DNA of 64,000 nucleotides from Bacteroidales bacterium (GCA_016296345.1 JAEDJL010000003.1:4555-68554); one strand, 5' to 3'; positions 259 through 49,482 are shown, counted from the first letter of the stretch. The notes: generated by a model not told the origin, from the sequence alone. Numbers and translations: made by a program.

Positions 259-287
259 AAATAAAACGCCGTTTTGGCGGCAAAATT
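259..287. repeat. Single unit of the AAAACGSCGTTT dispersed repeat family
   Basis: aaataaaacgccgttttggcggcaaaatt lies between the divergent tsaB and tRNA-Leu. It has the same core as the 4-unit arrays elsewhere. Confidence 0.6.
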
Positions 288-330
288 AAAGAAAAAAAGC
301 CAAATAATTGGTCAATTCAAAACTTATTCG

Positions 331-338
331 TAATTTTG
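331..338 (+). promoter_or_regulatory. Bacteroidota -7 promoter box (TAnnTTTG) for tRNA-Leu
   Basis: TAATTTTG is followed by CACTCGCA, 10 nt before the tRNA 5' end. The same TTTGCACTCGCA string precedes the second tRNA at 41105-41116. Confidence 0.6.
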
Positions 339-348
339 CACTCGCAAA

Positions 349-432
349 GCCCGAGTGGTGGAATTGGTAGACACGCCACTTTGAGGGGGTGGTGTCGGTT
401 TCGACGTGCAAGTTCAAGTCTTGTCTCGGGTA
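349..432 (+). tRNA. tRNA-Leu (anticodon GAG), class II with long variable arm
   Basis: Hand-folded cloverleaf. Acceptor GCCCGAG/CTCGGGT, anticodon stem CCACT/GGTGG with loop TTGAGGG (GAG at positions 34-36), long variable arm, T arm GCAAG-TTCAAGT-CTTGT, discriminator A. No encoded CCA. Confidence 0.9.
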
Positions 433-453
433 CATTTTTCATGGTATTTATTG

Positions 454-487
454 AAACGCTTGTGTCTTTCGACCAAGCGTTTTTTTG
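454..487 (+). terminator. Rho-independent terminator after tRNA-Leu
   Basis: Stem AAACGCTTG (454-462) pairs with CAAGCGTTT (474-482), followed by a T run. Confidence 0.7.
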
Positions 488-505
488 TATCTTTTGTTTG
501 GAGTT

Positions 506-2448: not shown

Positions 2449-2469
2449 ATCAAACTACCATTAAAATAC

Positions 2470-4175: not shown

Positions 4176-4186
4176 ATTTCAAATCT

Positions 4187-5763: not shown

Positions 5764-5850
5764 TTCTAACTCGCCGTTTTGGCAAAATAAAACGCCGTTT
5801 TATTTCAGCAAAACGCCGTTTCAGTCGGACAAAACGGCGTTTTATTTTGT
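5764..5850. repeat. Four-unit copy of the 21-nt-phased AAAACGSCGTTT composite repeat
   Basis: Core centres at 5774, 5795, 5816 and 5837, exactly 21 nt apart. Units 3 and 4 can pair (aaaacgccgttt / aaacggcgtttt). Confidence 0.9.
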
Positions 5851-5871: not shown

Positions 5872-8160
5872 CTACTTGATATTCAGCCTCAATCCAAGAT
5901 AAAACAAACGTCCCATAACGGGTGCATAGACCACCGAAGCGTCAAAGTGTTGTGTGAAAGGTTGGTCTGCACCGAACACAGGGGTGTCTTGCTTGTAGTC
6001 GGTGAGGTTTTCCGCTCCCACATAGACGTCAAAATTCTTGAACTTGCGGGTTATCTGTGCCAACATATAGATATATCCGGGTGCATACTCCTTGTCGTAG
6101 CCCACATTGAGCGGTACTCTCTGCTTTCCGTTGAATTGGGTTGTCAAGTCGAACATCCATTTGTCATACTTGGTCTTGTAGGACAATACAACCAAGCCTT
6201 TCCACTTTGAAACGTAAGGTTTTTGCATCAACTCTCCGTGATAGGTTGTCATAACGTCGTTATACCTTCCTGCCAAGCTGATATTAAATCCCTCCAACGG
6301 CTCTATGTTGATGTCAAGTTGGGCTGCATTGGAATAACTCTTGCCATCGAGGTTATAAAACCACACTTGGTTTGCGTTCTTGTCATAATCCACAACCACC
6401 TGATTGACGAAATTGGTGTGGTAATAGTCCAATGCTATTGACATTTCCCTGTCTCCCCAAATCTTAATGGTTTGTGAAAGGTTCAATCCTCCGTTCCATG
6501 CTTCTTCCATACCGAGTTTCTCTTCTATCTTGATGTCTCTCGAAGATGCAAGCAAGCCAAAGTTGTCTGCAATGAGGTTTGCACTTCTGAAACCCTTGCC
6601 TGCTGCTCCTCGGAATATCAAGTCGTCGGTAATTTTCCAACGAAAATGGAAACGAGGCGTGAAGATGTGTTTCTCATAGAAAGAGTTGTAGTCATATCTC
6701 GCACCGAGAGTAGCCACAAACTTGTTGGCATACTTGAAATTAAACTGACCGAATACACCGGGAACAACTTCCTGTTTGAAGAATTTATCTTTCATTCCCT
6801 CAATGTTTGATTGGAAAACCTCTGAACCAAGATATGGTCGGCTGAAAAGGTCTTCCCTTGTGTCCGAATAGCGGAAACTTGCACCAAAATCAACAGTATG
6901 TCCTGCCCAAATCTCGCTATTTACAAGCACATTGGCATAAACATCGCCCTCAGTGCCTTTGTAGTTGGTCAATCCGTAGTAGGCGTCTTGCTTAAAGTAG
7001 GTTGCAGAGAGCTGAGTGCCGAATGAGGAAGCGTTATTTAGCGGAGCGCCGTTCTTAGTAAAGAAGTGAATGCGGTCGGTTGTGCCTCCGAGACCATAAA
7101 TCGTGCTGTCGCCTCTCATATCCTTGGTAAAGTTCATGTCTCCTCCCACCCTGTCTTCGTGAGTGTAGTTAATCATAGTCTGAGAGCAAATTCCGTTCGG
7201 CACTTCGTACGTCCAGCGGTTTGCAAAGTTGATTTGGGTCTGCTTGGGATAGTCCATAAATCCGTCGCCATGGGGATATCCGTTTCTCGTTCCAAGATGG
7301 TCAAACGCCTTGAAACGATTTGTTGTGGCGTATGCAAAAACGCCTGTGGAGAGATGGTCATTGATTATGAAATTTGCCTTTGCACTCAATTCGCTTTTAA
7401 GCTCATTGTTTACGTAAGCGTTCAAAGAGAACAAGTCTCCTTTGTTTGGCTTTTCGTATTCGAGGTCTATGATTCCCGTAATGGTCTCATAGCCGTGCTT
7501 TACGGTGGCTACGCCTTTGCTTACGGAGATACTCTCCATCCAATTACCGGGAACGTATCCCAAACCGAAAGGTGCGGACAATCCTCTGAGAAATGGCATA
7601 TTTTCTAATAACAGTTGCGAATATACTCCGGTCAATCCCAAGAGCTGAATTTGCTTGCTGCCGCTCACAGCGTCCGAATAGCCCACATCAACCGAAGCAG
7701 AATTTTCAAAACTCTCCCCAAGGTTGCAACAAGCAAGGTGTTTGAGACCCTCAGCCGAGATTATCTCTTTTTGTTCCAAGCTCATTTTGGACATAAAGCT
7801 GCTCTTCATTCTCTCCTTTACCTCAACCACATTGAGCATTTCGGCAGAGAGCTGCATGGCTACCGATATTTCTGTTTTGTTTGCAACTTCCACTGTGTCG
7901 TTTTTGTAACCTGTGAAGCTGAAAACCAACTTTGTGTGTTTGTTGTTCTTTTTCTCTATTTTGAAATTGCCGTCTATGTCGGTGATTGTTCCTCCGCCTC
8001 CCTGCAACCAGTAAACGTTACAGCTCGGAAGGGTTTCCTTTGTCTTGTTGTCAAAAACCTTTCCCGTGATAGTCTGAGCTGCTGCACCGAAGGCAAGAAA
8101 GCACAGCACCGAAAGCATAAAAACTCTTTTGTTCATCATGTTTGATTTGTTTGATTTCAT
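5872..8160 (-). CDS. TonB-dependent outer-membrane receptor with CarboxypepD_reg-like N-terminal domain
   Basis: 762 aa. Signal peptide, ITGKVFDNKTKETLPSCNVYW (CarboxypepD_reg-like), plug and barrel regions, and a C-terminal aromatic-rich barrel end (GRLFYLGLRLNIK). The true start may be one of the internal Met codons 7-9. Confidence 0.85.
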   Translation of the reverse strand: MKSNKSNMMNKRVFMLSVLCFLAFGAAAQTITGKVFDNKTKETLPSCNVYWLQGGGGTITDIDGNFKIEKKNNKHTKLVFSFTGYKNDTVEVANKTEISVAMQLSAEMLNVVEVKERMKSSFMSKMSLEQKEIISAEGLKHLACCNLGESFENSASVDVGYSDAVSGSKQIQLLGLTGVYSQLLLENMPFLRGLSAPFGLGYVPGNWMESISVSKGVATVKHGYETITGIIDLEYEKPNKGDLFSLNAYVNNELKSELSAKANFIINDHLSTGVFAYATTNRFKAFDHLGTRNGYPHGDGFMDYPKQTQINFANRWTYEVPNGICSQTMINYTHEDRVGGDMNFTKDMRGDSTIYGLGGTTDRIHFFTKNGAPLNNASSFGTQLSATYFKQDAYYGLTNYKGTEGDVYANVLVNSEIWAGHTVDFGASFRYSDTREDLFSRPYLGSEVFQSNIEGMKDKFFKQEVVPGVFGQFNFKYANKFVATLGARYDYNSFYEKHIFTPRFHFRWKITDDLIFRGAAGKGFRSANLIADNFGLLASSRDIKIEEKLGMEEAWNGGLNLSQTIKIWGDREMSIALDYYHTNFVNQVVVDYDKNANQVWFYNLDGKSYSNAAQLDINIEPLEGFNISLAGRYNDVMTTYHGELMQKPYVSKWKGLVVLSYKTKYDKWMFDLTTQFNGKQRVPLNVGYDKEYAPGYIYMLAQITRKFKNFDVYVGAENLTDYKQDTPVFGADQPFTQHFDASVVYAPVMGRLFYLGLRLNIK

Positions 8161-8190: not shown

Positions 8191-8278
8191 CAACAAAACG
8201 CCGTTTCAGCGAAATAAAACGGCGTTTTGTTCTGCTGAAACGCCGATTTATTTTACCAAAACGGCGTTTCATTTTACC
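8191..8278. repeat. Four-unit copy of the 21-nt-phased composite repeat
   Basis: Core centres at 8201, 8222, 8243 and 8264, exactly 21 nt apart. Central base alternates C/G. Confidence 0.9.
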
Positions 8279-12640: not shown

Positions 12641-13564
12641 ATGACAGAGCAAAAACACGATTTGGAAGGATTGGATTTGATTTCCTTTTTCGGAGTGAAC
12701 GAAAAGAACCTCAATTTTTTGAGGATATTGTTTCCACGCTTGGTTTTGGTACAACGCAACTGCTCTTTGATTGTCAGAGGCGGCAAAGAAGATATGCAGG
12801 AGTTTGAAACATTTTTTCAAGACCTTGTTTGCCGTTACCACAGCGAGGGAACACTTGACGAAAACATCATTATGCAAACCAAAAATGGCGAAACAATGCC
12901 ACCGAAAGACGACGATGATGTTTTGGTTTATGCTTATGGCGGAGCAAAGATAAGAGCCAGAACAGCCAATCAGCGAAAAATGGTGGAGCAAATTGAGAAA
13001 AACGATATGCTTTTTGCTCTCGGACCTGCCGGAAGCGGCAAAACCTATACTGCGGTGGCACTTGCGGTCAGGGCTTTGAAGTCCAAGCAGGTCAAAAGGA
13101 TAGTTCTTACTCGTCCTGCGGTCGAAGCAGGAGAAAATCTCGGCTTTCTGCCCGGCGACATGAGGGAAAAACTCGACCCATACTTGCAACCGCTCTACGA
13201 TGCACTCAGAGATATGTTGAGTACTCAGCGTTTGGAACGACTGATTGAAGACAGGACGATAGAGATTGCCCCTTTGGCATTCATGAGAGGACGAACGCTT
13301 GACAATGCCTTCGTGATTTTGGACGAGGCACAGAACTCTACGGCAAACCAATTAAAGATGTTTCTCACCAGAATGGGCAGACATTCCAAGTTTATCATAA
13401 CCGGCGACAGCACTCAGGTCGATTTGCCAAAAAATCAAACCTCCGGACTTATTCCGACGGTCGAAAGATTAAAGCACATCAAGGAAATCTCGATTGTAAA
13501 CCTGACTTGCAGCGACATTGTGCGACATCCGTTGGTTACAAAGATAGTTGAGGCTTTGGATTGA
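12641..13564 (+). CDS. phoH: PhoH-family ATPase
   Basis: 307 aa. Walker A GPAGSGKTYTAVALAV, and RIVLTRPAVEAGE.LGFLPGD, FMRGRT and ILDEAQN are PhoH/YbeZ signatures. Confidence 0.9.
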   Translation: MTEQKHDLEGLDLISFFGVNEKNLNFLRILFPRLVLVQRNCSLIVRGGKEDMQEFETFFQDLVCRYHSEGTLDENIIMQTKNGETMPPKDDDDVLVYAYGGAKIRARTANQRKMVEQIEKNDMLFALGPAGSGKTYTAVALAVRALKSKQVKRIVLTRPAVEAGENLGFLPGDMREKLDPYLQPLYDALRDMLSTQRLERLIEDRTIEIAPLAFMRGRTLDNAFVILDEAQNSTANQLKMFLTRMGRHSKFIITGDSTQVDLPKNQTSGLIPTVERLKHIKEISIVNLTCSDIVRHPLVTKIVEALD

Positions 13565-13590: not shown

Positions 13591-16500
13591 ATGAAAAGAT
13601 TGTTTTTTGCTCTTGTCATAGTTTTTTTTGCTTTTGAGAGTTTTTCTCAGTCGGTTATCCGTTTTGAACAAAACAAGGGTCAATGGGAAGACCAAGTGCT
13701 TTATATGGCAAGGCTTGAGGGCGGATTTGTTTTCGTCAGAGAAGACGGTTTGTTGTTCTCCTATTCTCCCAATGTGCCGCACAATCATGATGCAACTTTG
13801 CAGCAGAGTAATCACTCGGGTCATGCCTTTTTGCTAAGACCGTTCGGAATGCAAAATACCAAGCCTTGTGCCACCGACAGCCTGCAAGGATACAGCAACT
13901 ACTTTATCGGCAACGACCCTTCCAAGTGGCAGAGCAATGTGGCGGCGTTTTCTACCATATTATATAAAGATGTATATAGCGGAATTGATTGGAAAATTTA
14001 CTCCGACGGCGGAAGATTGAAACATGAGTTCATTGTAGCTCCCGGGGCTGACGTTTCGCAAATTCAAGTCGAATACAGAGGTGTCGAAAGCATGAGTATA
14101 ATCGACGGAAATTTGCATCTGAAACTCTCTGTCGGCACGGTAGTCGAGCAAAAGCCCGTTTCATTTCAGCAAAACGGCGATTTAATCGACCAAATCGGCG
14201 TTTCATTTCAGCAAAACGGCGTTTTGTTAAGCTATGATATTGAGACATTTAACCACGAGAAAGAATTGATAATAGATCCCGAGCTTGTATTCTCGACTTA
14301 TTCGGGTTCTGTGTCGGATAATTGGGGATTTACCGCAACCTATGACGATTATGGCAATCTCTATTCGGGTTCTATTGTTTCGGGAGTGTACTATCCCACA
14401 ACCGAAGGAGCGTTCAGCGACAATTTTGGCGGAGTATGGGATTGTGCAATAACGAAATACTCTTCCGACGGCTCACAAATGATTTTTTCTACTTACCTTG
14501 GCGGCAGCTACAGCGAGATGCCACACAGCATGATAGTCGATTCTCGTGGCGATTTGATAGTTTTCGGAACTACGGGCAGCTTTAATTTTCCCACAACCGA
14601 GTGTGCATACAGCCGTTGGTTCTCCGGAGGAACTGCGGTAACCTATGACGGAACTGTAACCTTTCCTCACGGAGTTGATATGTACATCAGCCGTTTCAGT
14701 TCGGACGGAACACAGCTCAATGCCTCAACCTACATTGGCGGAAGCGGCAATGACGGACTTAACTACCGCGACCGCTACAACTCATCGCAACTCTTGACAT
14801 ACATAGGCAACGATTCGCTCTACGCAAACTACGGAGACGGAGCCAGAGGCGAGCTTATAACAGACGATAGAAACAATATATATGTGGGAAGCAGCACTTT
14901 CTCTTCTGATTTTCCCACAACGGCAGGAGCTTTTCAAACCACATCGCACGGAGAGCAGGAAGGCGTGGTCTTAAAGTTGGATTACACCTTGGGAACTTTG
15001 CTTTTCTCCTCCTACATTGGCGGAAGCTCTGACGATGCCGTCTTCAGCATAGACACAGACGACCAATACAGACTTTATGTTACCGGAGGAACGGTCTCAA
15101 ACGACTTTCCGACAACACCGAACACCTACAACACCACCCACAACGGCGGAAGCACAGACGCATTCGTCGCCTTGGTGTCATACGATGGCTCTACGCTTCT
15201 TCGTTCCACCTATTTCGGTTCGTCAGAGTTTGATTTGTCCTATTTTGTTCGCACAGACCGCCACAACAATCCTCATATTTTCGGTCAGACAAAGGCAGAA
15301 GGAGCAACTCTTGTCCACAATGCACAATACAATATCCCAAACAGCGGTCAGTTCATAGCCAAATTCAAGCCTCTTTTGGACAGTTTGGAATTTAGTACGG
15401 TCTTTGGAACGGGCGATGGTCGCATAAACATTTCGCCAACCGGCTTTGCAGTCGATGTATGTGGCAGAATTTATGCCTCGGGTTGGGGAAGAATGTTCAA
15501 ATATCTGCCAAATCTGCCTCCTCAATTCGGAACAATGAATATGCAAACCACCTCCGATTGTTACCAAAGCAATACCGACGGTCAGGATTTCTACATTATA
15601 TCTTTACAAAACGATGCTTCTGCCTTGGATTATGCCACCTTTTTTGGAGAAGTCAGCACAACAAGTACCCGAGGAGCCGACCACGTCGATGGAGGTACCA
15701 GCCGGTTTGACAAAAAAGGCAATCTGTATCAAGTAGCCTGCGCAAGCTGCGGCGGAACAGACAATTTCCCTATTTATCCTGCCAATGTGTGGAGCAGCGA
15801 TAACGGTTCGACAAATTGCAATGCCGCTTCATTCAAATTTAATATTCATTCAGACTTTGCAGTTGCCGACTTCTCTATGCCGGACTTTGTTTGCTATCCC
15901 GACAGTGTGCGATTGGAAAACCGCGGACGGGCAGACAGATACCTATGGCTTTTTGGCGACGGAACATCTTCAACCGAGACCAATCCCACACACCATTATG
16001 CTCAAAGCGGAACTTATACCATTACGCAGATTGCATACATGGACAACGCATGTCGAAGTTCCGACACACTCTCTCGCACAATCATTTTATTGGATAACCA
16101 TACCGACACCCTTTCGGAGGTGATTGCCTGCGGCGGAGAGTTGGTTCAGATTGGTCTTACCGACTATCCGTCTTCCGATGTATCCTTTCAGTGGTATCCC
16201 CAGAGCGGTTTGAGCAGTCCGAACGTCCCCGACCCATATCTTTTGGTCTCTTTGCCTACCGATTATAGGCTTGTTATCACCACTTCTTCCTGCAACGATA
16301 CACTCTTGCAGCCTATCAGGTTGAGGGATATGTCTATTGACCTTCCCGACACTATACATTATTGCAATCAACCTTACTCTCTGCAACTTCCTTCGGACAT
16401 TCCTTCGTCCTATTCGGTCAGTGCATCATGGCAAAGCTCTCCCGAAGAAGTTATTGCGGCAGTTGGAGGCGTCATAACGATAGAACAGTCTCTTTCATCT

Positions 16501-18427: not shown

Positions 18428-18868
18428 TTACTCTTCTGCTTCGTAGCTCAAAAACCTGTCTTTGAAGTCTTGGCTTATCGGAGCGGAAGAATTGGTACGT
18501 TTGTCAAAGCCTGCAAGTATTGTTCTGCACGTTCCTTTCACTATTCCACGGTCTGTAATCAGGCGTTGGTGCATATACATCGAGCGATTGCCAAAACGGA
18601 CGAGTTTTGTCTCGACAAAAACTTTTTCTCCTTGAACAATGGGTGAGAAAAAGTTGTTTTCGGTGTTTACAATCACGACTACGACCTTTGTCCAGTCCAA
18701 CTGCTCTCCCATTACCTGCTCAAAATAGTTTATCCTACCCAAGTCGTAATACTGAGCCTGAAAAGAGTTGTTCACATGGTTCAAAGCATCGAGGTCGCTA
18801 AAACGAATTTGTACTTGCAGACGATGTTTGTAAGTGTCGTTTTCGGGTTTTATCTGTTCGGTGTCCAT
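18428..18868 (-). CDS. Acyl-CoA thioesterase, 4HBT/YbgC hotdog family
   Basis: Start taken at the internal Met (MDTEQIKP...), because a TATCTTTG box lies at 18887-18894 on the minus strand, upstream of it. RFSDLDALNHVNNS is the YbgC-type catalytic motif. Confidence 0.75.
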   Translation of the reverse strand: MDTEQIKPENDTYKHRLQVQIRFSDLDALNHVNNSFQAQYYDLGRINYFEQVMGEQLDWTKVVVVIVNTENNFFSPIVQGEKVFVETKLVRFGNRSMYMHQRLITDRGIVKGTCRTILAGFDKRTNSSAPISQDFKDRFLSYEAEE

Positions 18869-19007
18869 TGTTCGTATTATTTTGTGCAAAGATACGTCTA
18901 TTCTTTCTTTTTGTCGCAACAATCCTTGCGACATTTGCGGCAAAGCATTTTATCAAATATGCAATCTACTCTTTTGCAATCAGTTGAACACAACGCAAGT
19001 TTATCTT

Positions 19008-19095
19008 TGACAAAACGGCGTTTTGGCAAAATAAAATGGCGTTTCAGCCGGACAAAACGCCGTTTTATTTTCGTGAAACGCCGTTTTATTTTGAG
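19008..19095. repeat. Four-unit copy of the 21-nt-phased composite repeat
   Basis: Core centres at 19018, 19039, 19060 and 19081. Lies in the divergent promoter region between the thioesterase gene and holA. Confidence 0.9.
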
Positions 19096-22481: not shown

Positions 22482-22566
22482 TAACAAAACGGCGTTTCGC
22501 CAAAATAAATCGCCGTTTCAGCAAAATAAAACGCCGTTTTGTCGAACTGAAACGGCGTTTTGTTAC
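22482..22566. repeat. Four-unit copy of the 21-nt-phased composite repeat
   Basis: Core centres at 22492, 22513, 22534 and 22555. Lies between the convergent TonB receptor and pabC genes. Confidence 0.9.
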
Positions 22567-24815: not shown

Positions 24816-24844
24816 ATCACAACAGCCAATTCTCATACCGCAAA

Positions 24845-30845: not shown

Positions 30846-30930
30846 AATTGAAACGCCGTTTTGCTCGAGCGAAACGGCGTTTTATTCTGCCAAAACGCCG
30901 TTTTATTTCACTGAAACGCCGTTTTGTCAG
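30846..30930. repeat. Four-unit copy of the 21-nt-phased composite repeat
   Basis: Core centres at 30856, 30877, 30898 and 30919. Confidence 0.9.
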
Positions 30931-30975
30931 AGCGTTTGCAAGAGGCTTTGTTTCAGATATTTATAACATAGATAT

Positions 30976-34106: not shown

Positions 34107-34192
34107 AAATAAAACGGCGATTTGCAGAAATAAATCGCCGTTTTATTCTGACAAAACGCCGTTTTATTTTGTTGAAACGGCGTTTTATTTCA
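34107..34192. repeat. Four-unit copy of the 21-nt-phased composite repeat
   Basis: Core centres at 34117, 34138, 34159 and 34180. Confidence 0.9.
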
Positions 34193-34229
34193 AGCATTGC
34201 AAGAGACTGTAATTCAAAACGATAAAATT

Positions 34230-38486: not shown

Positions 38487-39815
38487 ATGCACAAAGACCT
38501 TGAAGCATTTGTAAACAAGCAAAACTTGTTTGGAAAAGACGACAGAATTCTCTTGGCACTGAGCGGCGGAGTGGATTCTGTCGTTTTGGCTACTCTGATG
38601 CTTGAATGCGGCTATCATTTTTCGGCAGCTCACTGCAATTTTCACCTGCGTGGCAACGAGAGCATGAGAGACGAAGACTTTGTGAGGGCGTGGGCAAAAG
38701 AGCATGATGTGGAGTTGTTTGTAAAAGACTTCGACACATTTGGCTATATGCAGCAAAAGAAAATCTCTTTGGAAATGGCAGCACGCGAACTTCGCTACTT
38801 GTGGTTTGAAGAGCTGATTACAAGCAAGGGTTTTGACTGTCTTGCAACGGCTCATCATGCAGACGATTCGGCAGAAACCTTTTTTATCAATCTGCTGAGA
38901 GGAACGGGGATTGCAGGTCTGCACGGCATACTGCCAAAGAGCGGAAATATAGTCCGTCCGCTTCTTTTTGCCACTCGCAAACGCATTGCCGAGTTTGCCG
39001 AGCAAAGAAACATTGCCTTTGTTGAGGATTCGACCAACAGCCAGACTAAATTTTTGAGAAACAAAATCCGACATCAACTCTTCCCTTTGCTAAGAGAGAT
39101 TGCCCCTTCGTTTGATGAAACAATCGCAAAAGACATCGAACGCCTCAGAGAAACAGAGATGGTTTACTCTCAAGCTGTCAAGCAGTTACAAAACGAGCTT
39201 TTGAGCGAACAAAACGGCGTTTTAATTCTCCAAATCGCCGATTTATTACGCCAAAAGCCCGAAAGACTTTTGCTGTACGAAATTTTGTCTCAATACGGCT
39301 TCAACGAGAGCAGCTGCAACGACATTCTTTCGACATTAAACGCAGAGTCGGGCAGGCAGTTTGTGAGCAAAACTCACCGCATTGTCAAAGACCGCACCCG
39401 ACTTTTGATAACGCCAATAGAAAGTAGCAATTCAAAACAACAATACCTTATCGCCGAAGACCAAGACTGCATACAAGAACCATTTAATGCCCAAATCCAA
39501 AGCCTGAACGCAAAAGAGCATTTCACAATATGCAGGGAAAGGAACATCGCAATGATAGACAAAGACGCTCTGCACTTCCCTTTGGTTTTGCGACACTGGA
39601 AAGCAGGCGACAAATTCGTCCCCTTGGGAATGAAAAAGCCCAAAAAGCTCAGCGATTTCTTCACTGCCGAAAAGTATTCCCTTGTAGAGAAGCAACAGCA
39701 GTGGCTTTTGTGCAGCAATGATGAAATAGTATGGGTTGCAGGCAGGCGGTTGGACGAGCGATTTAAGGTATCGGACAGCACAAAGAACATATTAAAAATA
39801 CAAATCAATCAATAA
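38487..39815 (+). CDS. tilS: tRNA(Ile)-lysidine synthase
   Basis: 442 aa. PP-loop LALSGGVDSVVL, AHCNFHLRG, ATAHHADD and RPLL are TilS signatures. Confidence 0.9.
   Translation: MHKDLEAFVNKQNLFGKDDRILLALSGGVDSVVLATLMLECGYHFSAAHCNFHLRGNESMRDEDFVRAWAKEHDVELFVKDFDTFGYMQQKKISLEMAARELRYLWFEELITSKGFDCLATAHHADDSAETFFINLLRGTGIAGLHGILPKSGNIVRPLLFATRKRIAEFAEQRNIAFVEDSTNSQTKFLRNKIRHQLFPLLREIAPSFDETIAKDIERLRETEMVYSQAVKQLQNELLSEQNGVLILQIADLLRQKPERLLLYEILSQYGFNESSCNDILSTLNAESGRQFVSKTHRIVKDRTRLLITPIESSNSKQQYLIAEDQDCIQEPFNAQIQSLNAKEHFTICRERNIAMIDKDALHFPLVLRHWKAGDKFVPLGMKKPKKLSDFFTAEKYSLVEKQQQWLLCSNDEIVWVAGRRLDERFKVSDSTKNILKIQINQ
39187..39270. repeat. Four-unit composite repeat embedded in frame inside tilS
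   Basis: Core centres at 39197, 39218, 39239 and 39260 (21-nt spacing). Encodes QNELLSEQNGVLILQIADLLRQKPER. Confidence 0.75.
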
Positions 39816-42244: not shown

Positions 42245-42261
42245 AAAAAAAAAAAAAAAAA
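42245..42261. repeat. A17 (T17 on the coding strand of neighbouring genes) homopolymer tract
   Basis: 17 consecutive A counted directly. They lie 25-41 nt upstream of the -7 box of the OMP gene. Confidence 0.9.
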
Positions 42262-42281
42262 CGATTTTTTATCAACCTGTC

Positions 42282-42387
42282 AATAAAAATCGGATTTTAA
42301 TCAAATCAAAACGGCATTTTAGCGGAATAGAACGCAGTTTGATTTTGCCAAAACGCCGTTTCAGCATAATAAAAGGGCGTTTTGCAA
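42282..42387. repeat. Degenerate five-unit copy of the composite repeat
   Basis: Core-like centres at 42292, 42314, 42335, 42356 and 42377 (spacings 22, 21, 21, 21). Several cores are mutated. Confidence 0.65.
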
Positions 42388-42487: not shown

Positions 42488-43921
42488 TTACTCGTTGATT
42501 AACTTCTCTATTTCGTCCAAATCTGCCCTGAAACGTTTGTCGGTATCGTAACTGTTTTGAACAGACTTGCAAGCGTGCAGAACGGTTGCGTGATCTTTGT
42601 TGCCACATTTTGAACCTATGGTTGCAAGAGAGTTTTGTGTGTGCTTACGAGAAAGATACATCGAAATATGTCTTGCTGCCACCACATTGCCTTTTCGAGT
42701 TTTTGAAAGCATCAGGCTTATCGGAATGGAGAAATAATCACATACCACTTTTTGTATGTATTCTATCGACATCTCTCTTGAAGAACTCTTGACAAACTTG
42801 TCTATCAGTTCTTTGGCAAGCTCTATTGTGATACCTGATTTGTTGATTGAGCTTTGGAAAAGAAGAGATATTAGCACTCCTTCCAACTCTCTGACGCTTG
42901 TGCTGACGTTGTAGGCAAGGTATTCGATGACATCTTCCGGCACATTGTCAATTCCGTCTTTCAAGAGCTTGCGTTTGATGATTTCTATGCGGGTCGGTGC
43001 GTCCGGCACTTGCAAATCGGCACTCAATCCCCACTTCAAACGCGATATTACACGCTGTTCCAAACCAGAAAGCTCGGCAGGAGACTTATCGGAGGTGATT
43101 ATGAGCTGCTTACCTGCCGAATGTAGTCCGTTAAATATCTGAAAAAACACGTCTTGTGTCCCTTGCTTGTTGGCAAAGAACTGAATATCGTCAATAATCA
43201 GCACATCAATCATCATTTGGTAGAATTGAAGAAAATCGTTTGTCGTTTTGTTCTTCACACTGTCCACATACTGCTGAAAAAACTGCTCTGCACTGATGTA
43301 TAAGACCGTCTTGTCGGGATAACGTTGCTTTGTCTCCAAGCCAATGGCATGAACAAGGTGCGTTTTTCCCAATCCCACATTACCATATATGAAAAGAGGG
43401 TTAAAAGCTGTCTTTCCGGGATTTTGAGCCACCGCATAACCGGCAGAACGTGCCAAACGATTGCAAGCACCCTCTACAAAATTATCAAAGGAGTAGTTCT
43501 CGTCAAGCTGAGAGTTCACTTTGATTTTCTTCAAACCCGGAATGACAAACGGATTTGGGAAACCTTTTACGTCTGTGTCCATATTCATAGGTATTGTGGT
43601 CGATCTGTTTTGTGTGGCTTTCCTGTCGTTTGAAGGAAGTTTGACATCTGCTCCCACAGCCGAGCTGTCAATCACCGTAGAGTAGATGAGCTTGCCTCCT
43701 TCTCCCAATTCCTTCTTGATGGCAGCTCGCAATTCGTTGATGTAATTTGCTTCCAACCACTCACAAAAGAACATACTCGGCACTTTGAGTGTCAATGTGT
43801 CGTCTTGAAGAGCCAACGGCTTCAATGGAACGAACCATGTCTCAAATATGTGCTTGTCGGGCAATATATCCTTTATGAAGTCCAAACAATTTTGCCAAAC
43901 TTGATTACAATCCTTTTGCAT
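42488..43921 (-). CDS. dnaA: Chromosomal replication initiator protein DnaA
   Basis: 477 aa. N-terminal W..CL..I pattern, AAA+ Walker A GNVGLGKTHLVHAIG, IIDDIQF, and C-terminal domain IV (HISMYL.R..T..SL..IG...G.KDHATVLHA). Confidence 0.95.
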   Translation of the reverse strand: MQKDCNQVWQNCLDFIKDILPDKHIFETWFVPLKPLALQDDTLTLKVPSMFFCEWLEANYINELRAAIKKELGEGGKLIYSTVIDSSAVGADVKLPSNDRKATQNRSTTIPMNMDTDVKGFPNPFVIPGLKKIKVNSQLDENYSFDNFVEGACNRLARSAGYAVAQNPGKTAFNPLFIYGNVGLGKTHLVHAIGLETKQRYPDKTVLYISAEQFFQQYVDSVKNKTTNDFLQFYQMMIDVLIIDDIQFFANKQGTQDVFFQIFNGLHSAGKQLIITSDKSPAELSGLEQRVISRLKWGLSADLQVPDAPTRIEIIKRKLLKDGIDNVPEDVIEYLAYNVSTSVRELEGVLISLLFQSSINKSGITIELAKELIDKFVKSSSREMSIEYIQKVVCDYFSIPISLMLSKTRKGNVVAARHISMYLSRKHTQNSLATIGSKCGNKDHATVLHACKSVQNSYDTDKRFRADLDEIEKLINE

Positions 43922-44349
43922 AATTTCAGTTCTACTTTACGGTTCTGTGTTTTAATTTCGTCGTTTCAGTTGCGAAAAAGGAAGTTTGCAGAAACACAGA
44001 AAACACATTCCTACCTTTCCTTTTCACGATTGCAAAGGTACATCTTTTGTTGTGGAAAATATTTATCGATTTTGTTTTGGAAAATTCCGAATTTATTCTT
44101 ATAGCTTCGGCGAGTATTTTTGTCCCTTTTTGGAGATTTTCTTCGCTATCGAGATTTCTACTTTTCTATATGCTTGAATTGCAACTTAAAAACACTTTTT
44201 ACGCAAGTGCAACGAACTCTCATACGAAAATATTCGCAATTAAAAAAATTTTCAAAGGACTTTTTTCAACACGAACCTGCAATTTTTTTGACCAAACTCA
44301 CAATCTGACAATCAGTAACTTGCAAAAATTTTATTGAGCTGAGGAGTAG

Positions 44350-44967
44350 TTATACACTTGCCAAAAATTCAAATTCCACATTTTGCAGCTTGGAAATTTC
44401 TTCCACAAAATTATCTTCGTCTTCTCGGTTTATCAAAATCTCGATTGAGCATTGTGTGTCAAAATTGTGGTTTCTCTGCAAGGCGTCATGGCGTTTCAAA
44501 AGCCCCATGACGGCATTCATTTTCTCATATTGAAAGGTTATTTTGTAGAGTTGTCGAACTTTTTTTTCAACAATCGAAGCCTCTGCAAGGCATACCTCTG
44601 CTGATGCCTTGTAGGCTTTAATCAGTCCGCTCACTCCGAGTTTTGTGCCTCCGAAGTAGCGAACCACCACTACCAAAACATTGGTCAGATTGTTTGAAAG
44701 CAACTGTCCGTAAATCGGTTTGCCTGCCGTCGAAGATGGTTCGCCGTCGTCGCACATTCTGTACTCTTCTTTGTCGAACCCGATGACGTAAGCATAGCAA
44801 TGATGTGTCGCATCGTAATACTTTTTCTTCAATTCGGAAAGGATTTCCTTCACTTGAGAAACACTTTCGACCGGATAGGCAAAGGCAAGGAACTTACTGC
44901 CTTTTTCTTTGTACAATCCCTCGCATGGACTTTCTATTGTAAGGTAGCTGTCTGCCATAACGGACAA
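44350..44967 (-). CDS. yigZ: IMPACT/YigZ family (UPF0029) protein
   Basis: 205 aa. EKGSKFLAFAYPV and ATHHCYAY....D.GEP..TAG.PI are YigZ signatures. Confidence 0.8.
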   Translation of the reverse strand: MSVMADSYLTIESPCEGLYKEKGSKFLAFAYPVESVSQVKEILSELKKKYYDATHHCYAYVIGFDKEEYRMCDDGEPSSTAGKPIYGQLLSNNLTNVLVVVVRYFGGTKLGVSGLIKAYKASAEVCLAEASIVEKKVRQLYKITFQYEKMNAVMGLLKRHDALQRNHNFDTQCSIEILINREDEDNFVEEISKLQNVEFEFLASV

Positions 44968-46258: not shown

Positions 46259-46345
46259 AGACAAAACGCAGTTTTGGTAGAATGAAACACCGTTTCATTC
46301 TGCTAAAACGCCGTTTTATTCTGCTGAAACGAAGAGTTGTTTTGC
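46259..46345. repeat. Four-unit, partly degenerate copy of the composite repeat
   Basis: Core centres at 46269, 46290, 46311 and 46332 (21-nt spacing). Confidence 0.8.
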
Positions 46346-46365
46346 TCAAAGAAAACAATGTGTTG

Positions 46366-46797
46366 CTACATTATCATTTCCATGCGTTGCTTGAGCGTTT
46401 CGACCAAGGTGTCTGCCGCCTTTGCAAGCTGTTTTTTGACCATCATCGCCATCATTTGAGGAACGTCCAACTCAATCGTTGCCTTCACATTACATTTGTA
46501 TGGTTCTGTCTTTTCAAAGTCTATGGTCAGCAAAAAATTAAACGGCATGGACGAAGGTACATCGGTATCATTTGTTATCACAAGACGCTCATTAGGAACT
46601 CTTGAAAGCATCTTGATGCCGAAATCGCCCATGTTCTTAATCGTAAAGCTGCACTTGTCTTCGGTAGATTTGAAGTTGTCGATTTTATCGTTCGCCATCA
46701 TCGAAAAATTCGAGAAGTTCTTCAAATAATCGTACACAAACTCAACGTTTCTCTTTATTTCGGTCGTCTTACTCTCTGTTTTAATCATGTCAATCAA
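46366..46797 (-). CDS. Hypothetical protein, possibly SRPBCC/START-like fold
   Basis: 143 aa. The beta-rich pattern with a long C-terminal helix resembles CoxG/polyketide-cyclase-like proteins. Weak, composition-level inference only. Confidence 0.4.
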   Translation of the reverse strand: MIDMIKTESKTTEIKRNVEFVYDYLKNFSNFSMMANDKIDNFKSTEDKCSFTIKNMGDFGIKMLSRVPNERLVITNDTDVPSSMPFNFLLTIDFEKTEPYKCNVKATIELDVPQMMAMMVKKQLAKAADTLVETLKQRMEMIM

Positions 46798-46862
46798 CTA
46801 AAAAGGGCGTTACATTCGTATTATAACGCCCGTGTTCTTTAATCTGTTTTAATGTACAATCG

Positions 46863-47516
46863 TTATTTCATTCTCTGTTCTGACCACAATTCGGGATTTT
46901 CCCTCCATTTGGTGAGCGAAATCAAGTCTTCCTGACTTATAAAGCTCTCTTCGGCTGCCAAATCTATCAATGTATGATAGTCTGTTATGGTGTTGAGAAG
47001 CACATCCTTTGTTTCAAACGCCTGCTTTGCCACTTCGAGATTATAAGTAAAGATTGCAGCCATTCCTTTTACGCTGCAACCTGCCTCTCTCAAAGCATCA
47101 ACAACCTGCAAACTACTCTTACCCGTGGAAATCAAGTCTTCGATAACCACAATAGACTGTCCGCTTTTCAAATCGCCCTCAATCTTGTTGCCCAAACCGT
47201 GCTTTTTCTCTTCGGGACGCACATATACAAAAGGCTTTCCGAGGTCTTGTGCAACCAAGACACCCTGTGCAATTCCTCCTGTGGCAACACCGGCAATCAC
47301 ATCGACGTCTGCGTACAGCTCATTGACGATTGCAACGAACTGTTGGCGGATAAAAGTTCTGATGTCAGGATATGACAAAGTTACTCTGTTGTCGCAATAA
47401 ATTGGCGACTTTCTTCCGGAAGCCCAAGTGAAGGGGCTTTCATTATTCAACTTTATTGCTTTAATTTGCAATAAAAATCGAGCTGCTTGTTTAGCTGTTT
47501 CTTTATTCAAAATCAT
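46863..47516 (-). CDS. pyrE: Orotate phosphoribosyltransferase
   Basis: Start at MILNKETAKQ (CAT at 47514-47516). FTWASGRKSPIYCDNR and the PRPP motif VVIEDLISTGKS are present. TACCTTTG lies immediately upstream, implying a leaderless or very short leader. Confidence 0.9.
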   Translation of the reverse strand: MILNKETAKQAARFLLQIKAIKLNNESPFTWASGRKSPIYCDNRVTLSYPDIRTFIRQQFVAIVNELYADVDVIAGVATGGIAQGVLVAQDLGKPFVYVRPEEKKHGLGNKIEGDLKSGQSIVVIEDLISTGKSSLQVVDALREAGCSVKGMAAIFTYNLEVAKQAFETKDVLLNTITDYHTLIDLAAEESFISQEDLISLTKWRENPELWSEQRMK

Positions 47517-47517
47517 G

Positions 47518-48159
47518 ATGCAAAGGTACAACATTTTCAATAAATACAATAGGATTTGTATCCTAAATGAACAATCCGGTGTTTTTTTTCATTCGGACGA
47601 AAGGGTGATAGAATGTACTCCCGAGACGATAAATTCAATCGATTTTCGCAGTTTTTTTGAGGACGATTGCCGACAAAATATCATAATTTTTGTTAAAAGT
47701 TTACCCTTGGAGGAAGTTTTTTTCAAGGCAACGGAAGGCTTGGTTTTCGTTCAGGCTGCAGGAGGCTTGGTTCGCAACAGTGCAAATGAGTATCTGTTCA
47801 TCTATCGTGCCGGACATTGGGACTTGCCCAAGGGACATAGAGAGCAGGGTGAGGATTTGGACTTTACGGCAACAAGAGAGGTTGAAGAAGAAACGGGAGT
47901 TGGCTCTCTCAAATTGGGCGAAAAGATAGGCGTTACCTACCATACATATATGATGAAGGGCAGACGCGAAATCAAAGAGACACATTGGTACGATATGTTC
48001 TCGGACTGCACCGACAAACTCACCCCTCAAAAAGAGGAAGGGATAACAAAAGCCCTCTGGATTTCAAAAGCAAAAGTCCAAACCTTGGGTCGAAAGATTT
48101 ACCCTTCACTCCGACATTTGCTTTCAACTATCGGCTTTGCGTTCGACAAGACATTGTAG
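47518..48159 (+). CDS. NUDIX hydrolase with an N-terminal extension
   Basis: Nudix box GHWDLPKGHREQGEDLDFTATREVEEETGV. The start is uncertain: ATG 47515/47518 overlaps the pyrE start on the other strand. Confidence 0.7.
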   Translation: MQRYNIFNKYNRICILNEQSGVFFHSDERVIECTPETINSIDFRSFFEDDCRQNIIIFVKSLPLEEVFFKATEGLVFVQAAGGLVRNSANEYLFIYRAGHWDLPKGHREQGEDLDFTATREVEEETGVGSLKLGEKIGVTYHTYMMKGRREIKETHWYDMFSDCTDKLTPQKEEGITKALWISKAKVQTLGRKIYPSLRHLLSTIGFAFDKTL

Positions 48160-49419
48160 AGTGATACGGCTCTTCTGCTCTATCAAGATGCGATATTGCT
48201 CGGTATTCAGGGCGTTTGAAACCGAATTTTCTTCGTAGTGCCTTATCGTAAGCAGACAAAGGGAGTTGTTATATCTGACAACGTACGATTGTTGCAAGGT
48301 TTCGATAATCTCGGGCAGCAGATTGTCATTTCTGTCAAAGCAAACCGAGAAGCTCAAAGCCGAATTTTGCATCATGTTCACCTTTATTCCGAAGGTGGAA
48401 AGGACTTCAAAAATTTTGGAAATATTCTCTTCGGCAATGAAAGAGAAGTCTTTGGGATACACCGATAGCAAAGTCTGATTGTCTTTGAAGATATAGTTAG
48501 GCACAAGCGGACAAAGAGCCTTGCAAGCATAGATTACAGTTCCCTTGTCTTGCGGATTGTTGAAGCTCTTTACATATAATGGTATCTGTTTGTTCTCCAA
48601 AGGCTTGATTGTCTTGGGGTGAATAATCGATGCTCCATAGTATGAGAGTTCTATTGCTTCCTTGTATGGCACTGTTTCGAGAAGAACGGTATTTTTCATC
48701 TTCTTGGGGTCGGCGTTCATCACGCCCGACACATCTTTCCATATCGTCATGCTTTCGGCATCGGAGCAATAGGCAAAAATTGCTGCCGAAAAGTCCGAAC
48801 CCTCTCTGCCGAGCGTTGTTATATACCCTTCTTTGGTCGAACCGATAAAGCCTTGCGTCAAAACCGTATCGCAAACATCAAAAAGCGGAAGCAGGTTTTG
48901 CTTTATCAAAGTTTCGGTTTGCTTCCATTTGAGGTCGGAAGTGCGAAAATTGTTGTCCGTCTTGATAAAATCGGGAGCTGCAACATGACGATGAGAAAAG
49001 CCTTCGGCACTCATATATGAGGAAATGATACTTGTCGATAGCCTCTCTCCGTAAGACACAATGCTGTCATACAAAAAGTCGTAGTCGTTAGGGTTGAGCG
49101 TAAGTATCTTTGCCCTGCACTCTTCGACCATAAGAGCGACCAATGAGCGGCAAGCCATACGGTCATTCTCCTTTGTAAACAAACCATCGATTATTTCAAA
49201 ATGATAAGAGAGCAAAGCCTCAAAATCCTTCTCCTCCACACGGTGTTCATTGTGCCAAAGATTGACCACTTTCTCCAAAGCATTGGTCGTTTTTCCCATT
49301 GCCGAAACTACAACTATGCGTTTACGGCTCTCACTGCCCAATATGGACAACACATTCTTCACTGCCGAGGAGGTATTGACCGAAGCCCCTCCGAATTTCT
49401 CCACATATATCTTTTGCAT
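48124..49419 (-). CDS. lysC: Aspartate kinase
   Basis: Start at MQKIYVEKFGGASV (CAT at 49417-49419). KFGG.S, VVVSAMGKTTN, and C-terminal ACT-like repeats. Confidence 0.85.
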   Translation of the reverse strand: MQKIYVEKFGGASVNTSSAVKNVLSILGSESRKRIVVVSAMGKTTNALEKVVNLWHNEHRVEEKDFEALLSYHFEIIDGLFTKENDRMACRSLVALMVEECRAKILTLNPNDYDFLYDSIVSYGERLSTSIISSYMSAEGFSHRHVAAPDFIKTDNNFRTSDLKWKQTETLIKQNLLPLFDVCDTVLTQGFIGSTKEGYITTLGREGSDFSAAIFAYCSDAESMTIWKDVSGVMNADPKKMKNTVLLETVPYKEAIELSYYGASIIHPKTIKPLENKQIPLYVKSFNNPQDKGTVIYACKALCPLVPNYIFKDNQTLLSVYPKDFSFIAEENISKIFEVLSTFGIKVNMMQNSALSFSVCFDRNDNLLPEIIETLQQSYVVRYNNSLCLLTIRHYEENSVSNALNTEQYRILIEQKSRITLQCLVERKADS

Positions 49420-49459
49420 ATCCTCCGATTTTGACCACAAAACTACAAAAAAAACAGCT

Positions 49460-49482
49460 ATCTCGGCGTTTTATTTTGCCAT
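49460..49482. repeat. Single unit of the AAAACGSCGTTT repeat family
   Basis: ctatctcggcgttttattttgcc lies in the divergent lysC/ftsX promoter region. Confidence 0.5.

Follow-up and report, generated by a model that had tools for sequence, protein, structure and literature searches.

The closest family-level comparison for the repeat described here, as an earlier reading of its sequence had proposed, is with the REP and BIME sequences of Enterobacteria and Pseudomonas. BIMEs bind gyrase, IHF and Pol I on duplex DNA, and enterobacterial REPs are species-specific, yet are often found at the same sites. Some REPs are intragenic, many of these in genes for replication and repair, and a link between BIMEs and gyrase is on record (PMC3733652). 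REP sequences are reported to coevolve with their RAYT genes, and those of Bacteroidetes subclass 2.6 are hairpins of ~16-30 nt that mostly have 3-nt loops and carry no GTAG (PMC6006769).

Here we describe a dispersed repeat in a stretch of 64,000 nucleotides (the window) from an uncultured gut Bacteroidales. A first-pass annotation had listed 13 loci with near-palindromic cores in 21-nt phase, and had suggested an iteron-like array for a dimeric DNA-binding or nucleoid protein, or a REP- or MITE-like element. That interpretation is partly supported by the present analysis. Coding copies, polymorphism in unit number and genus-specific core variants were absent from the annotation.

Results

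Both strands of the 64-kb window together contain 35 matches to the core AAAACGSCGTTT, compared with 0.04 expected from shuffles, and Tandem Repeats Finder independently returned a period of 21, with 0% indels in 9 of 10 period-21 rows; the enriched, phased repeat noted earlier is real. Within arrays the centre-to-centre distance is exactly 21 nt, without indels (chaining allowed ≤2 mismatches to the core; Table 1). The arrays recur approximately every 4 kb, and ~45 units per 49.5 kb correspond to a density of ~1 unit per 1.1 kb. Across 38 arrays (137 units) of this lineage, the mode is four units per array (26 arrays), and the centre base is C in 77 units, G in 59, A in one and T in none. The 21-bp unit consensus, N R N Y R AAACG S CGTTT Y R N Y N, is near-palindromic, with palindromy reaching positions ±7, and it lacks a GTAG or CGTC tetranucleotide tag. 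Half-spacers are of two types, and a weak consensus exists at the level of whole arrays. Some intergenic arrays have a flanking extension, GCNTTGCAAGAGRCT, in common, and after the array at 30846-30929 this shared extension reads GCGTTTGCAAGAGGCT.

Table 1. Repeat loci in the 64-kb window, with unit composition, centre positions and genomic context.
Position	Strand	Units (centre bases)	Centres	21-nt chain at centre	Context
259-287		single canonical unit AAATAAAACGCCGTTTTGGCG	269		upstream of tRNA-Leu (349-433)
5764-5847		four (C C C G)	5774/5795/5816/5837	5774	tandem (-,-) intergenic, downstream of TonB-dependent receptor gene
8191-8274		four (C G C G)	8201/8222/8243/8264	8201	
14146-14229	+	four		14156	inside DUF7948/T9SS protein gene (13591-17778, +)
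19008-19091		four (G G C C)		19018	between divergent gene starts: thioesterase-like gene (18428-18943, -) and unscanned ORF with plausible start ATG 19146 (+)
22482-22565		four (G C C G)		22492	between convergent genes
24844-24908		one canonical unit plus degenerate GTGGCGATTTTT / AATGCCACTTTTT modules	24854		
30846-30929		four (C G C C)		30856	tandem (+,+) intergenic, upstream of mutL
34107-34190		four (G C C G)		34117	130 nt past efp stop codon
39186-39248	+	two to three recognisable	39196/39217/39238		inside tilS (38487-39815, +)
42283-42387		five degenerate		42314	downstream of dnaA (42488-43921, -)
46259-46342		three plus terminal variant TGCTGAAACGAAGAGTTGTTT		46269	
49460-49482		remnant of one unit CTCGGCGTTTTATTTTGCC			

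The list of the first-pass annotation calls for several corrections. The tilS array has two to three recognisable units with centres one base from those given, the array at 14156 has a degenerate first unit (AAAGCCCGTTT), and the fourth unit at 46332 is a variant (AAACGAAGAGTT); in addition, 42283-42387 consists of five degenerate units. The loci at 259-287, 24845-24908 and 49460-49482 each comprise a single unit or a remnant. The array beside dnaA is not special, and the ORF whose plausible start is at 19146, beyond the array between divergent genes, presumably encodes DNA polymerase III delta (holA).

The 21-bp phasing sets the cores on one face of the helix, as had been proposed, and the 10.5-nt periodicity of AA/TT exceeds that of shuffles, being 5-14 times as strong. 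The centre base follows no fixed order: opposite centres in neighbouring units occurred in 14, 13 and 17 of 30 arrays, versus 15 expected. Unit orientation within clusters is thus random, not alternating, and the 21-nt register is fixed. Because the C and G centres of neighbours are uncorrelated, hairpins are not selected, and the pairing of neighbouring units into stems, suggested earlier, is not the organising principle of the arrays.

Over 0-49.5 kb the arrays are evenly spaced (CV 0.32 versus 0.93 for random placement; P = 4e-5 against a uniform distribution, P = 0.036 against choice among intergenic gaps), and the two coding arrays occupy the two largest gaps between intergenic arrays (P = 0.003, post hoc). 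The even spacing is significant for this interval only, being lost once the tail of 14.5 kb without arrays is counted in, and it fails in L121, which has an array-free stretch of 12.9 kb. A strain-variable island at 55-64 kb carries no arrays.

All copies had been taken to be intergenic, but two of the 13 window loci lie inside ORFs (Table 1). The DUF7948 array, which reads EQKPVSF QQNGDLI DQIGVSF QQNGVLL, leaves protein length unchanged relative to 8 homologues and is also conserved in L101; the tilS array (..EQNGVLI LQIADLL...) leaves length unchanged relative to 10 homologues and is conserved in 92-98% strains. Related strains contain at least six further arrays inside ORFs, including those of glycogen synthase, RecN and SbcC. 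The glycogen synthase array adds 0 residues relative to homologues, and for the SbcC array a comparison with family profiles reveals no net gain; all four SbcC centres are C, so no unit is able to pair with another. RecN agrees with its profile to within 4 residues, but in an explicit alignment two units overlie native residues and two are added (14 aa of the 28-aa array). Three of the four explicitly aligned coding arrays (DUF7948, TilS and glycogen synthase) therefore add no residues, and RecN adds half. Six arrays fall in the coding frame of a recognised protein with a family-profile match, and in these the frame is CAA AAC GSC GTT, encoding Q N G/A V. These comparisons indicate that several in-gene arrays replace native codons instead of being inserted.

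The 21-nt phasing extends beyond the window. Multi-unit arrays occur in at least 14 Bacteroidales MAGs, on >25 contigs in one of them and on dozens of contigs in related genomes. The core need not be a palindrome, since AAACAGCCTTT or AAACAAAGAAW, in both orientations, serves as the core in related genomes with the 21-nt phase unchanged. In sister genera (TilS 57-63% identical), 21-nt-phased arrays of three to four units have other cores; these follow efp in L116, L118 and L130, and tRNA-Met in L116, L129 and L130. Several core types are found within one genome (L116; Hm464_bin103), and in other MAGs the arrays are embedded in dispersed repeats of 370-670 bp. IMG/VR viral contigs yielded only two matches, both plain two-core hairpins. 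Rfam gave no repeat-family match in the window: only a tRNA was matched at gathering threshold, and a permissive search returned only sub-threshold chance matches.

Between strains, unit number changes in steps of 21 or 42 nt. The site at 8191-8274 has three units in L101 (a 92%-identical strain) versus four in the window, and the site at 24844-24908 has three canonical units in L104 (98.5%-identical), a difference of 42 nt; the spacer of the array at 34107-34190 shows multi-base patch differences among 98.5% strains. Arrays also occur at synteny or rearrangement breakpoints and at contig ends: synteny with 92-95% strains stops at 34107-34190, a 1-kb indel in L122 has its breakpoint at the array at 42283-42387, contigs L105 and L106 end at 24844-24908, and contig L121, from a related strain, ends at 46259-46342. 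In L123, dnaA has a Fic gene on its far side. The presence/absence polymorphism envisaged earlier was not seen, every comparable array being at the same site across 92-98% strains.

Discussion

The arrays have a regular, exactly phased anatomy, lie apart from terminators and contain randomly oriented units; some coding copies add no length, strains are polymorphic, and sister genera carry different cores at corresponding positions. We tentatively read them, with somewhat less than even confidence, as a Bacteroidales counterpart of REP/BIME: a four-site, one-face protein platform on duplex DNA that evolves in concert by recombination. The exact two-turn spacing would bring four sites, with their A- and T-tracts in phase, onto one face of the helix, and because they share that face such sites may form a curved, cooperative platform for a sequence-reading protein. 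As in BIMEs, candidates for this protein would be DNA gyrase or a nucleoid-associated protein that works where transcription units end and within long ones. The arrays would function on double-stranded DNA and not as RNA or single-strand hairpins. Maintenance and homogenisation would proceed mainly by recombination-type copying, through gain or loss of units in 21/42-nt steps, patchy gene conversion between arrays and overwriting of tolerant coding segments; such copying would result in concerted evolution, in which positions are conserved but each genus has its own core. The arrays do not fit cut-and-paste insertion.

Several observations run counter to this protein-platform reading. The array of protein sites envisaged by the first-pass annotation is retained, but its dimeric protein is weakened because non-palindromic cores, which argue against a simple symmetric dimer, occur at the same 21-nt phase in related genomes. 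Coexisting core types would be expected of selfish repeat families more than of a single host function, the shared extension suggests copying as a longer element, dispersed repeats enclose arrays in other MAGs, and even spacing is limited to part of the window, with a long array-free stretch in a related strain.

Bidirectional intrinsic terminators or RNA-stabilising hairpins, in which inverted neighbours would pair into stems of 12-19 bp between A and T runs, are suggested by the strong single-strand folding of the arrays (z-scores -3.3 to -8.1), by the position of most arrays downstream of at least one gene, and by two-unit inverted pairs with the same core that resemble ordinary terminators in other genomes and phage contigs. 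We nevertheless consider this quite improbable. Terminator-like hairpins already stand between stop codon and array after efp (34261-34246, -) and dnaA (42437-42414, -), so the arrays there are not the terminators, and in sister genera visual inspection points to similar hairpins after tRNA-Met and efp. One array is located between divergent gene starts (Table 1) and others inside ORFs, opposite centres in neighbours are not enriched, and termination needs neither strict 21-nt phasing nor a four-unit mode; the earlier view that the arrays are not simply terminators holds. That each is an 84-nt non-autonomous transposon (MITE) moved by a DDE transposase is extremely improbable: the copies are dispersed, similar in length and in part share flanks, but flanks are in general unrelated and contain no conserved target-site duplications or terminal inverted repeats distinct from the units, length differences come in 21/42-nt steps, three coding copies have no added length, and a Pfam scan of 20 window ORFs showed no transposase. 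The MITE option raised at first is not supported.

A selfish REPIN/RAYT element is unlikely but well worth bearing in mind. Each unit would be a single-strand hairpin (9-bp stem, 3-nt loop), and a single-copy Y1 (HUH) transposase of Bacteroidetes RAYT subclass 2.6 would recognise and multiply units or doublets, leading to BIME-like accumulation with no host function. Unit size and quasi-palindromy fit REPs, and several core types per genome, flanking extensions shared by some arrays and the longer dispersed repeats that enclose others agree with this reading; in-gene REPs, often in repair genes, are known (PMC3733652), RecN and SbcC carry arrays here, and REP-RAYT coevolution has been reported (PMC6006769). 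Against this, a regex search for a RAYT-like HUH...Y motif found none in 1.05 Mb of window and related loci, the guide tetranucleotide is absent, units are randomly oriented without a doublet signal, coding arrays leave length unchanged in three cases, one coding array (SbcC) has no hairpin potential, and comparable arrays of 92-98% strains show no presence/absence polymorphism. An uptake-signal-like or self-marking motif under molecular drive, in which a bias at an uptake, recombination or self/non-self step favours motif-bearing alleles and arrays, in-gene ones and genus-specific cores included, build up in place, strikes us as rather improbable. It would agree with coding copies that leave length unchanged, occupy protein segments tolerant of change and keep to one reading frame, with cores that differ among genera at conserved positions, and with the density and even spacing of arrays over 0-49.5 kb, where coding arrays fill the two largest gaps; the array-free strain-variable island and the two plain hairpins in viral contigs point the same way. 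However, known uptake sequences are single 9-12-mers and not phased four-unit arrays, none was reported for Bacteroidetes in the literature searched, the even spacing disappears with the array-free tail and in L121, and core types coexist in one genome.

Comparison with Known Systems

Plasmid iterons and centromere repeats, such as the four 20-bp repeats of pSK41 parC, are a possible lead. Like the arrays, they have ~20-22-bp repeats, three to five in number and two turns apart, with cooperative binding on one face; they differ in occupying one locus per replicon, as direct repeats beside a rep or par gene, whereas the arrays are found at ~13 loci per 64 kb of chromosome with units in either orientation. 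Iterons in the replication sense, one of the earlier suggestions, are not supported, given 13 loci in 64 kb and arrays on dozens of contigs in related genomes.

The Rickettsia palindromic elements and intragenic REPs are likewise in-frame palindromic repeats of ~20-30 residues in conserved proteins. Such elements have been described as residue-adding insertions; of the four cases aligned here, three add none and RecN adds only half of its array.

DNA uptake sequences (DUS of Neisseriaceae, USS of Pasteurellaceae) share with the repeat a strongly over-represented 12-mer, occurrence in coding DNA without indels and in tolerant frames, genus-specific core variants and frequent inverted pairs; a further likeness is that the repeat is missing from the strain-variable island at 55-64 kb and nearly missing from viral contigs. 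Uptake sequences are single motifs, in contrast to phased arrays of four 21-bp units, and here several core types are present per genome.

REP/BIME sequences differ from the arrays in their GTAG or CGTC tag, in alternating rather than random orientation, and in lying next to stop codons, where the arrays lie beyond terminator-like hairpins. Their hallmarks include an extragenic location and a cognate RAYT gene flanked by units, whereas 2 of 13 window loci and at least six related-strain arrays are in ORFs, three coding copies overwrite native codons with no added length, and no RAYT was linked in the 1.05 Mb scanned by regex; strict 21-bp phasing with a preference for four units is particular to the arrays. 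Both are short imperfect palindromes of high copy number, mostly intergenic, clustered in both orientations with fixed linkers, and changing by whole units, and both have some copies in genes, often DNA-repair genes (PMC3733652). A further parallel is that position is kept while unit sequence differs between taxa, as it does here at four sister-genus loci.

Anatomy and phasing of the arrays

The 12-mer AAAACGSCGTTT has 35 matches on the two strands of the window, compared to 0.04 expected from dinucleotide-preserving shuffles; the arrays are real and far above chance. The exact 21-nt phasing described in the first-pass annotation was borne out both by a scan allowing up to two mismatches, in which nine arrays have their unit centres linked at intervals of exactly 21 nt, and independently by Tandem Repeats Finder, which returned a period of 21 with 0% indels in nine of ten period-21 rows (see table). 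The locus coordinates assigned earlier were mostly right, with three corrections: the tilS site was one base off (centres 39196/39217/39238, with only two to three recognizable units), some of the supposed fourth cores are degenerate or variant, and three loci are single units or remnants. Adjoining one single canonical unit is a different inverted pair, AAAGTGGCGATTTTT ... AAAATGCCACTTTTT, which may be a diverged core variant of the array unit.

Unit statistics were compiled from 38 arrays (137 units) pooled from the window and from loci of SFPR01 (MAG W3P37.035). Four units per array is the mode (26 arrays); the other twelve comprise six three-unit arrays, five two-unit arrays and a single five-unit array. 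The consensus, N R N Y R AAACG S CGTTT Y R N Y N, is palindromic out to positions ±7. Core positions other than the centre are 85-99% conserved, mostly >96%, and the centre base is C in 77 units, G in 59, A in one and T in none; being nearly always C or G, the centre is no more variable than the rest of the core. The simplest reading is that the unit is present in both orientations and that the centre base alone reveals which, a reading confirmed by related MAGs, whose non-palindromic cores (AAACAGCCTTT and its complement AAAGGCTGTTT) occur both ways at the same 21-nt phase. The arrays as a whole also have a weak orientation, which does not depend on the unit centres. Half-spacers are of two kinds (TATTT/AAATA or a GC-containing pentamer), and the central spacer occurs as CAGTCGGACA and as the reverse complement of CAGTCGGACA. 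AA/TT dinucleotides show a 10.5-nt periodicity 5-14 times that of shuffles, from which the arrays are predicted to be intrinsically curved.

Positions of arrays and associated features (window coordinates unless an L handle, denoting a locus or contig fetched from another genome, is given)
Feature	Position	Strand	Context
Phased arrays, first centres	5774, 8201, 14156, 19018, 22492, 30856, 34117, 42314, 46269		≤2-mismatch scan
Coding array	14146-14229		Inside 1395-aa DUF7948/T9SS protein gene
Coding array	39186-39248		Inside tilS
Coding array, related strains			1412-aa glycogen synthase/phosphorylase fusion
Coding arrays, related strains			RecN; SbcC
Coding arrays, related strains			BioC-like protein; glucosaminidase-like protein
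Coding array, related strains			Third ORF without family match, tentatively read as radical-SAM-like
Inverted pair	24865-24908		Adjoins single canonical unit
Run of ~18 A	42245-42262		Just upstream of degenerate dnaA-side array
Terminator-like hairpin	34261-34246	minus	efp stop codon to array
Terminator-like hairpin	42437-42414	minus	dnaA stop codon to array
dnaA, 477 aa	42488-43921	-	DnaA_N, Bac_DnaA, Bac_DnaA_C
Second dispersed repeat	55189-55375, 61714-61957		Direct copies
6.5-kb segment			321-aa gene; 1588-aa T9SS-sorted protein gene
(AAAGC) x 10.6	55774-55824		Intergenic
Tandem 210-nt repeats	57364-57993		Inside 1588-aa T9SS-sorted gene
Schlafen/AlbA_2 + HATPase_c_4 protein	62184-63563	+	Edge of variable region
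Flank-extension copies	30931-30960, 34193-34225; L107 ~6950-6975; L109 ~13340-13360		Window lineage
Array-bearing long repeats	L029 5454-5914, L063 3269-3710, L075 5378-5745		MAG RGIG9858
Array-bearing long repeat	L095 1775-2414		Onthomorpha
One-orientation tandem arrays	L096 ~1256-1470; L016 ~575-760; L099 ~197-360		Related cores
Sister-genus core	L118		AAACGCCSTTT
Sister-genus cores	L116		AAACAAAGAAW and AAATCAAGAAA; also one AAACGGCGTYT array
Sister-genus core	L129		ATCAAAGAAAA
Sister-genus core	L130		GAATCWWGATTC

Hairpins and terminators

Single-stranded, the arrays all fold well, though the topology differs from one to the next. The first-pass annotation held that the C/G centre flips without fixed order and that neighbouring units can pair into stems. 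Among 30 distinct four-unit arrays, neighbouring centres are opposite in 14, 13 and 17 cases versus 15 expected, which agrees with the first statement and goes against the second as an organizing principle: with no excess of opposite centres, pairing between units is not selected. Fifteen arrays are 2:2 balanced, compared to 11.2 expected (P = 0.11), and the common variants GATTT and AAATC meet a compensating change in the partner unit at about the chance rate, judged by eye.

Terminator-like hairpins lie between stop codon and array at both efp and dnaA, and similar ones, identified by eye, precede the arrays after tRNA-Met and efp in sister genera. The array at 19008 is located between divergent gene starts, and intergenic regions without arrays hold what appear by eye to be ordinary GC-rich hairpin terminators. 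For these reasons, and as already proposed from the sequence, the arrays are elements distinct from terminators, situated mostly in the spacer DNA past them.

Arrays inside genes

The coding arrays add no residues to TilS relative to its homologues, none to glycogen synthase (27 aa compared to 25-27 in a variable loop) and none to the DUF7948 domain, in which family-conserved residues stay in place; SbcC shows no net gain against family profiles. In RecN, explicit alignment with homologues reveals 14 additional aa, equivalent to two units; the array's other two units coincide with native residues. A 21-nt unit spans seven codons, which keeps every unit of an array in one frame: CAA AAC GSC GTT (Q N G/A V) in six of six arrays inside recognized, profile-matched proteins and also in the glucosaminidase-like protein, and K T P/A F in the ORF without a family match. 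Judged by where they sit, the arrays of RecN and SbcC seem to fall in coiled-coil regions; in the SbcC array all four centres are C, making a hairpin impossible there.

Overwriting and the expansion of units, rather than an inserted 84-nt element, gave rise to the coding copies. Ancient insertion as the origin of arrays that add no length was rejected for DUF7948, where the Pfam profile spans the array without an insert. Di Nocera et al. (PMC3733652) described REPs within genes, many of them for replication and repair; the RecN and SbcC arrays resemble these in gene type, but the REP cases were described as insertions.

Variation among strains

Exact-protein look-ups yielded two orthologous sets, from strains 98.0-98.6% and 92-95% identical to the window. 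The first-pass annotation had suggested looking for presence/absence polymorphism at orthologous sites; there was none among the strain-comparable arrays, each of which is at the same site in every strain compared, and the differences lie in unit number, spacers and centres. A 92% strain has three units at site 8191, where the window has four, and at 24845 the window is without two of the three units found in a 98.5% strain. At 34107 the spacer between units 3 and 4 is TTTGT, CCAGC or CCGAC among 98.5% strains with nearly identical flanks, indicating patchy conversion. Centres of the efp-side array read C G G C in the window; those of its orthologue in the 92-95% strains read G C G G. These comparisons directly support maintenance of the arrays by recombination (unit slippage, conversion and overwriting).

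Synteny with the 92-95% strains stops exactly at the efp-side array. The array at 42283-42387 is the breakpoint of a 1-kb indel in one related strain (L122), and in another (L123) a Fic gene is on dnaA's far side; contigs of related strains stop at arrays 24845 and 46259. The arrays mark rearrangement breakpoints and assembly breaks, and are relevant to the reading of metagenome-assembled genomes.

Spacing and the array-free tail

Distances between successive loci, 13 in all over 0-49.5 kb, are 2.4-6.0 kb, and their CV is 0.32 versus 0.93 for random points (P = 4e-5). For intergenic arrays only, P = 0.036 versus random choice among 22 intergenic gaps; the two coding arrays occupy the two largest gaps (P = 0.003, post hoc). 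The window's last 14.5 kb contain no array, and when this tail is counted as an interval the CV is ~0.64 (hand calculation), which is not expected to be significant. Even spacing is suggestive, not established; as a general rule it is weakened by the array-free tail and by 12.9 kb without an array in a 94.6% strain (L121).

Within the tail, 55.2-64 kb varies among strains: in five strains of 98% identity the contigs stop at ~55.2 kb, which marks the region as strain-variable or repeated. Here two copies of a second dispersed repeat bound a 6.5-kb segment; the copies have in common an identical 31-nt stretch (TATCTTTTTACGCTTTTGCCCCTGCAGGGCG) and a 78-nt stretch that is 81% identical. Inside the 1588-aa gene a 210-nt (70-aa) repeat occurs three times in tandem, the other copies being 80% and 63% identical to the first, and the pentanucleotide microsatellite nearby could be a slippage or phase-variation tract. 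Schlafen/AlbA_2 + HATPase_c_4 proteins, one of which is encoded at the region's edge, are typical of defence or mobile islands. Given dnaA and the GC-skew profile (window 1-64000: mostly negative or near zero to ~56 kb, positive beyond), the window probably includes the replication origin or lies close to it; no array occurs in the 428 nt upstream of dnaA (43921-44350).

Relatives and core turnover

TilS homologues and contig titles place the window in uncultured Bacteroidales. A scan of 185,579 species genomes for a pair of cores at 21-nt distance gave at least 101 stretches; among the matches listed, most come from Bacteroidales MAGs of rumen, hindgut and termite gut, many of them from W3P37.035, one block of which is 92% identical to window 7.7-15.8 kb. 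Single matches in Variovorax, Clostridia and other taxa are isolated inverted pairs resembling ordinary hairpin terminators and were treated as unrelated; viral contigs gave only two matches, both plain two-core hairpins. Like the initial inspection, which recognized no named family, Rfam returned only tRNA for the window in a gathering search (and sub-threshold chance matches, e.g. to microRNA models, in a permissive one) and only tRNAs for ten loci of other MAGs, and the literature searched (core sequence; Bacteroidales repeats, MITEs and uptake sequences) holds no description of these arrays.

Some MAGs have their arrays within longer dispersed repeats (370-670 bp, non-coding) that give no Rfam match and are 78-96% identical to one another, also between the RGIG9858 and Onthomorpha MAGs. 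Four arrays of the window lineage, two of them in the window, have the flank GCNTTGCAAGAGRCT / extension GCNTTGCAAGAGRCTKTWWTTCA in common, which suggests that the GCNTTGCAAGAGRCTKTWWTTCA-flanked arrays are a subfamily copied as a longer element of ~115 nt. From the long repeats and the common flank it follows that some arrays are also copied as part of a larger piece. Long tandem arrays of 21-nt units, five to nine head to tail in one orientation, were seen in an uncultured Bacteroidales, in a Flavobacterium MAG and, within an open frame, in a Verrucomicrobiaceae MAG.

Four sister-genus loci (TilS 57-63% identical) all carry 21-nt phased arrays of three to four units in both orientations. In L116 and L130 these lie both past the efp hairpin and downstream of tRNA-Met, in L118 past the efp hairpin and in L129 downstream of tRNA-Met. 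The differing cores are given in the table; the window lineage retains a terminal variant unit, AAACGAAGAGTT, that bridges the sister-genus forms. On this comparison, array architecture and positions are old, and the core sequence has turned over in concert. Enterobacterial palindromic units behave similarly, their sequences turning over while positions are often kept. REPs are reported to coevolve with their RAYT genes (PMC6006769). If confirmed, genus-specific cores at conserved positions would permit direct comparison of repeat and candidate reader protein across genera, and could test whether such repeats are selfish or host-serving.

Interpretation and comparison with known systems

The arrays are of a known kind, dispersed palindromic-unit clusters. 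Such repeats are well studied in Proteobacteria and hardly in Bacteroidales, a dominant gut order. The closest are REP/BIME, in keeping with the REP-like option of the first-pass annotation; its MITE and iteron suggestions, and a terminator reading, each fail tested features. Exact phasing, irrelevant orientation, unselected hairpins, the persistence in genes of arrays incapable of forming hairpins, and location past terminators lead us to favour a role on duplex DNA, with the array a predicted four-site, one-face and probably curved binding platform. BIMEs bind gyrase and IHF, and by analogy the role could be topological or architectural, exerted at transcription-unit ends and within long units.

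It is possible, if somewhat doubtful, that the arrays constitute a genome-wide "punctuation" system of uncultured gut and rumen Bacteroidales, in which phased 4 x 21-bp arrays would co-evolve with a reader protein, DNA-level drive or selection would fix positions across genera as the core changes, and arrays would be written into tolerant coding segments where intergenic space is lacking. Candidate functions would include topological relief, chromosome organization, uptake and self-marking of DNA; we know of no described system with this combination of properties. A single-strand mechanism driven by RAYT, the Y1 (HUH) transposase tied to REPs, seems unlikely. A RAYT motif regex found no match in 1.05 Mb of loci, which is not decisive, and a RAYT subclass whose REPs are atypical is known from Bacteroidetes (PMC6006769). 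An uptake-signal-like drive, which would account for coding copies and genus-specific cores but is without precedent as phased arrays, we consider quite improbable.

Unusual, and undescribed in the literature searched, are the strict two-turn phasing, the four-unit preference, the coding copies that replace native codons without length change, and the core turnover at fixed positions. The first three stand out among REP-like elements, and phasing, unit number and codon replacement suggest that some force acts at the level of the DNA sequence and that a reader protein exists.
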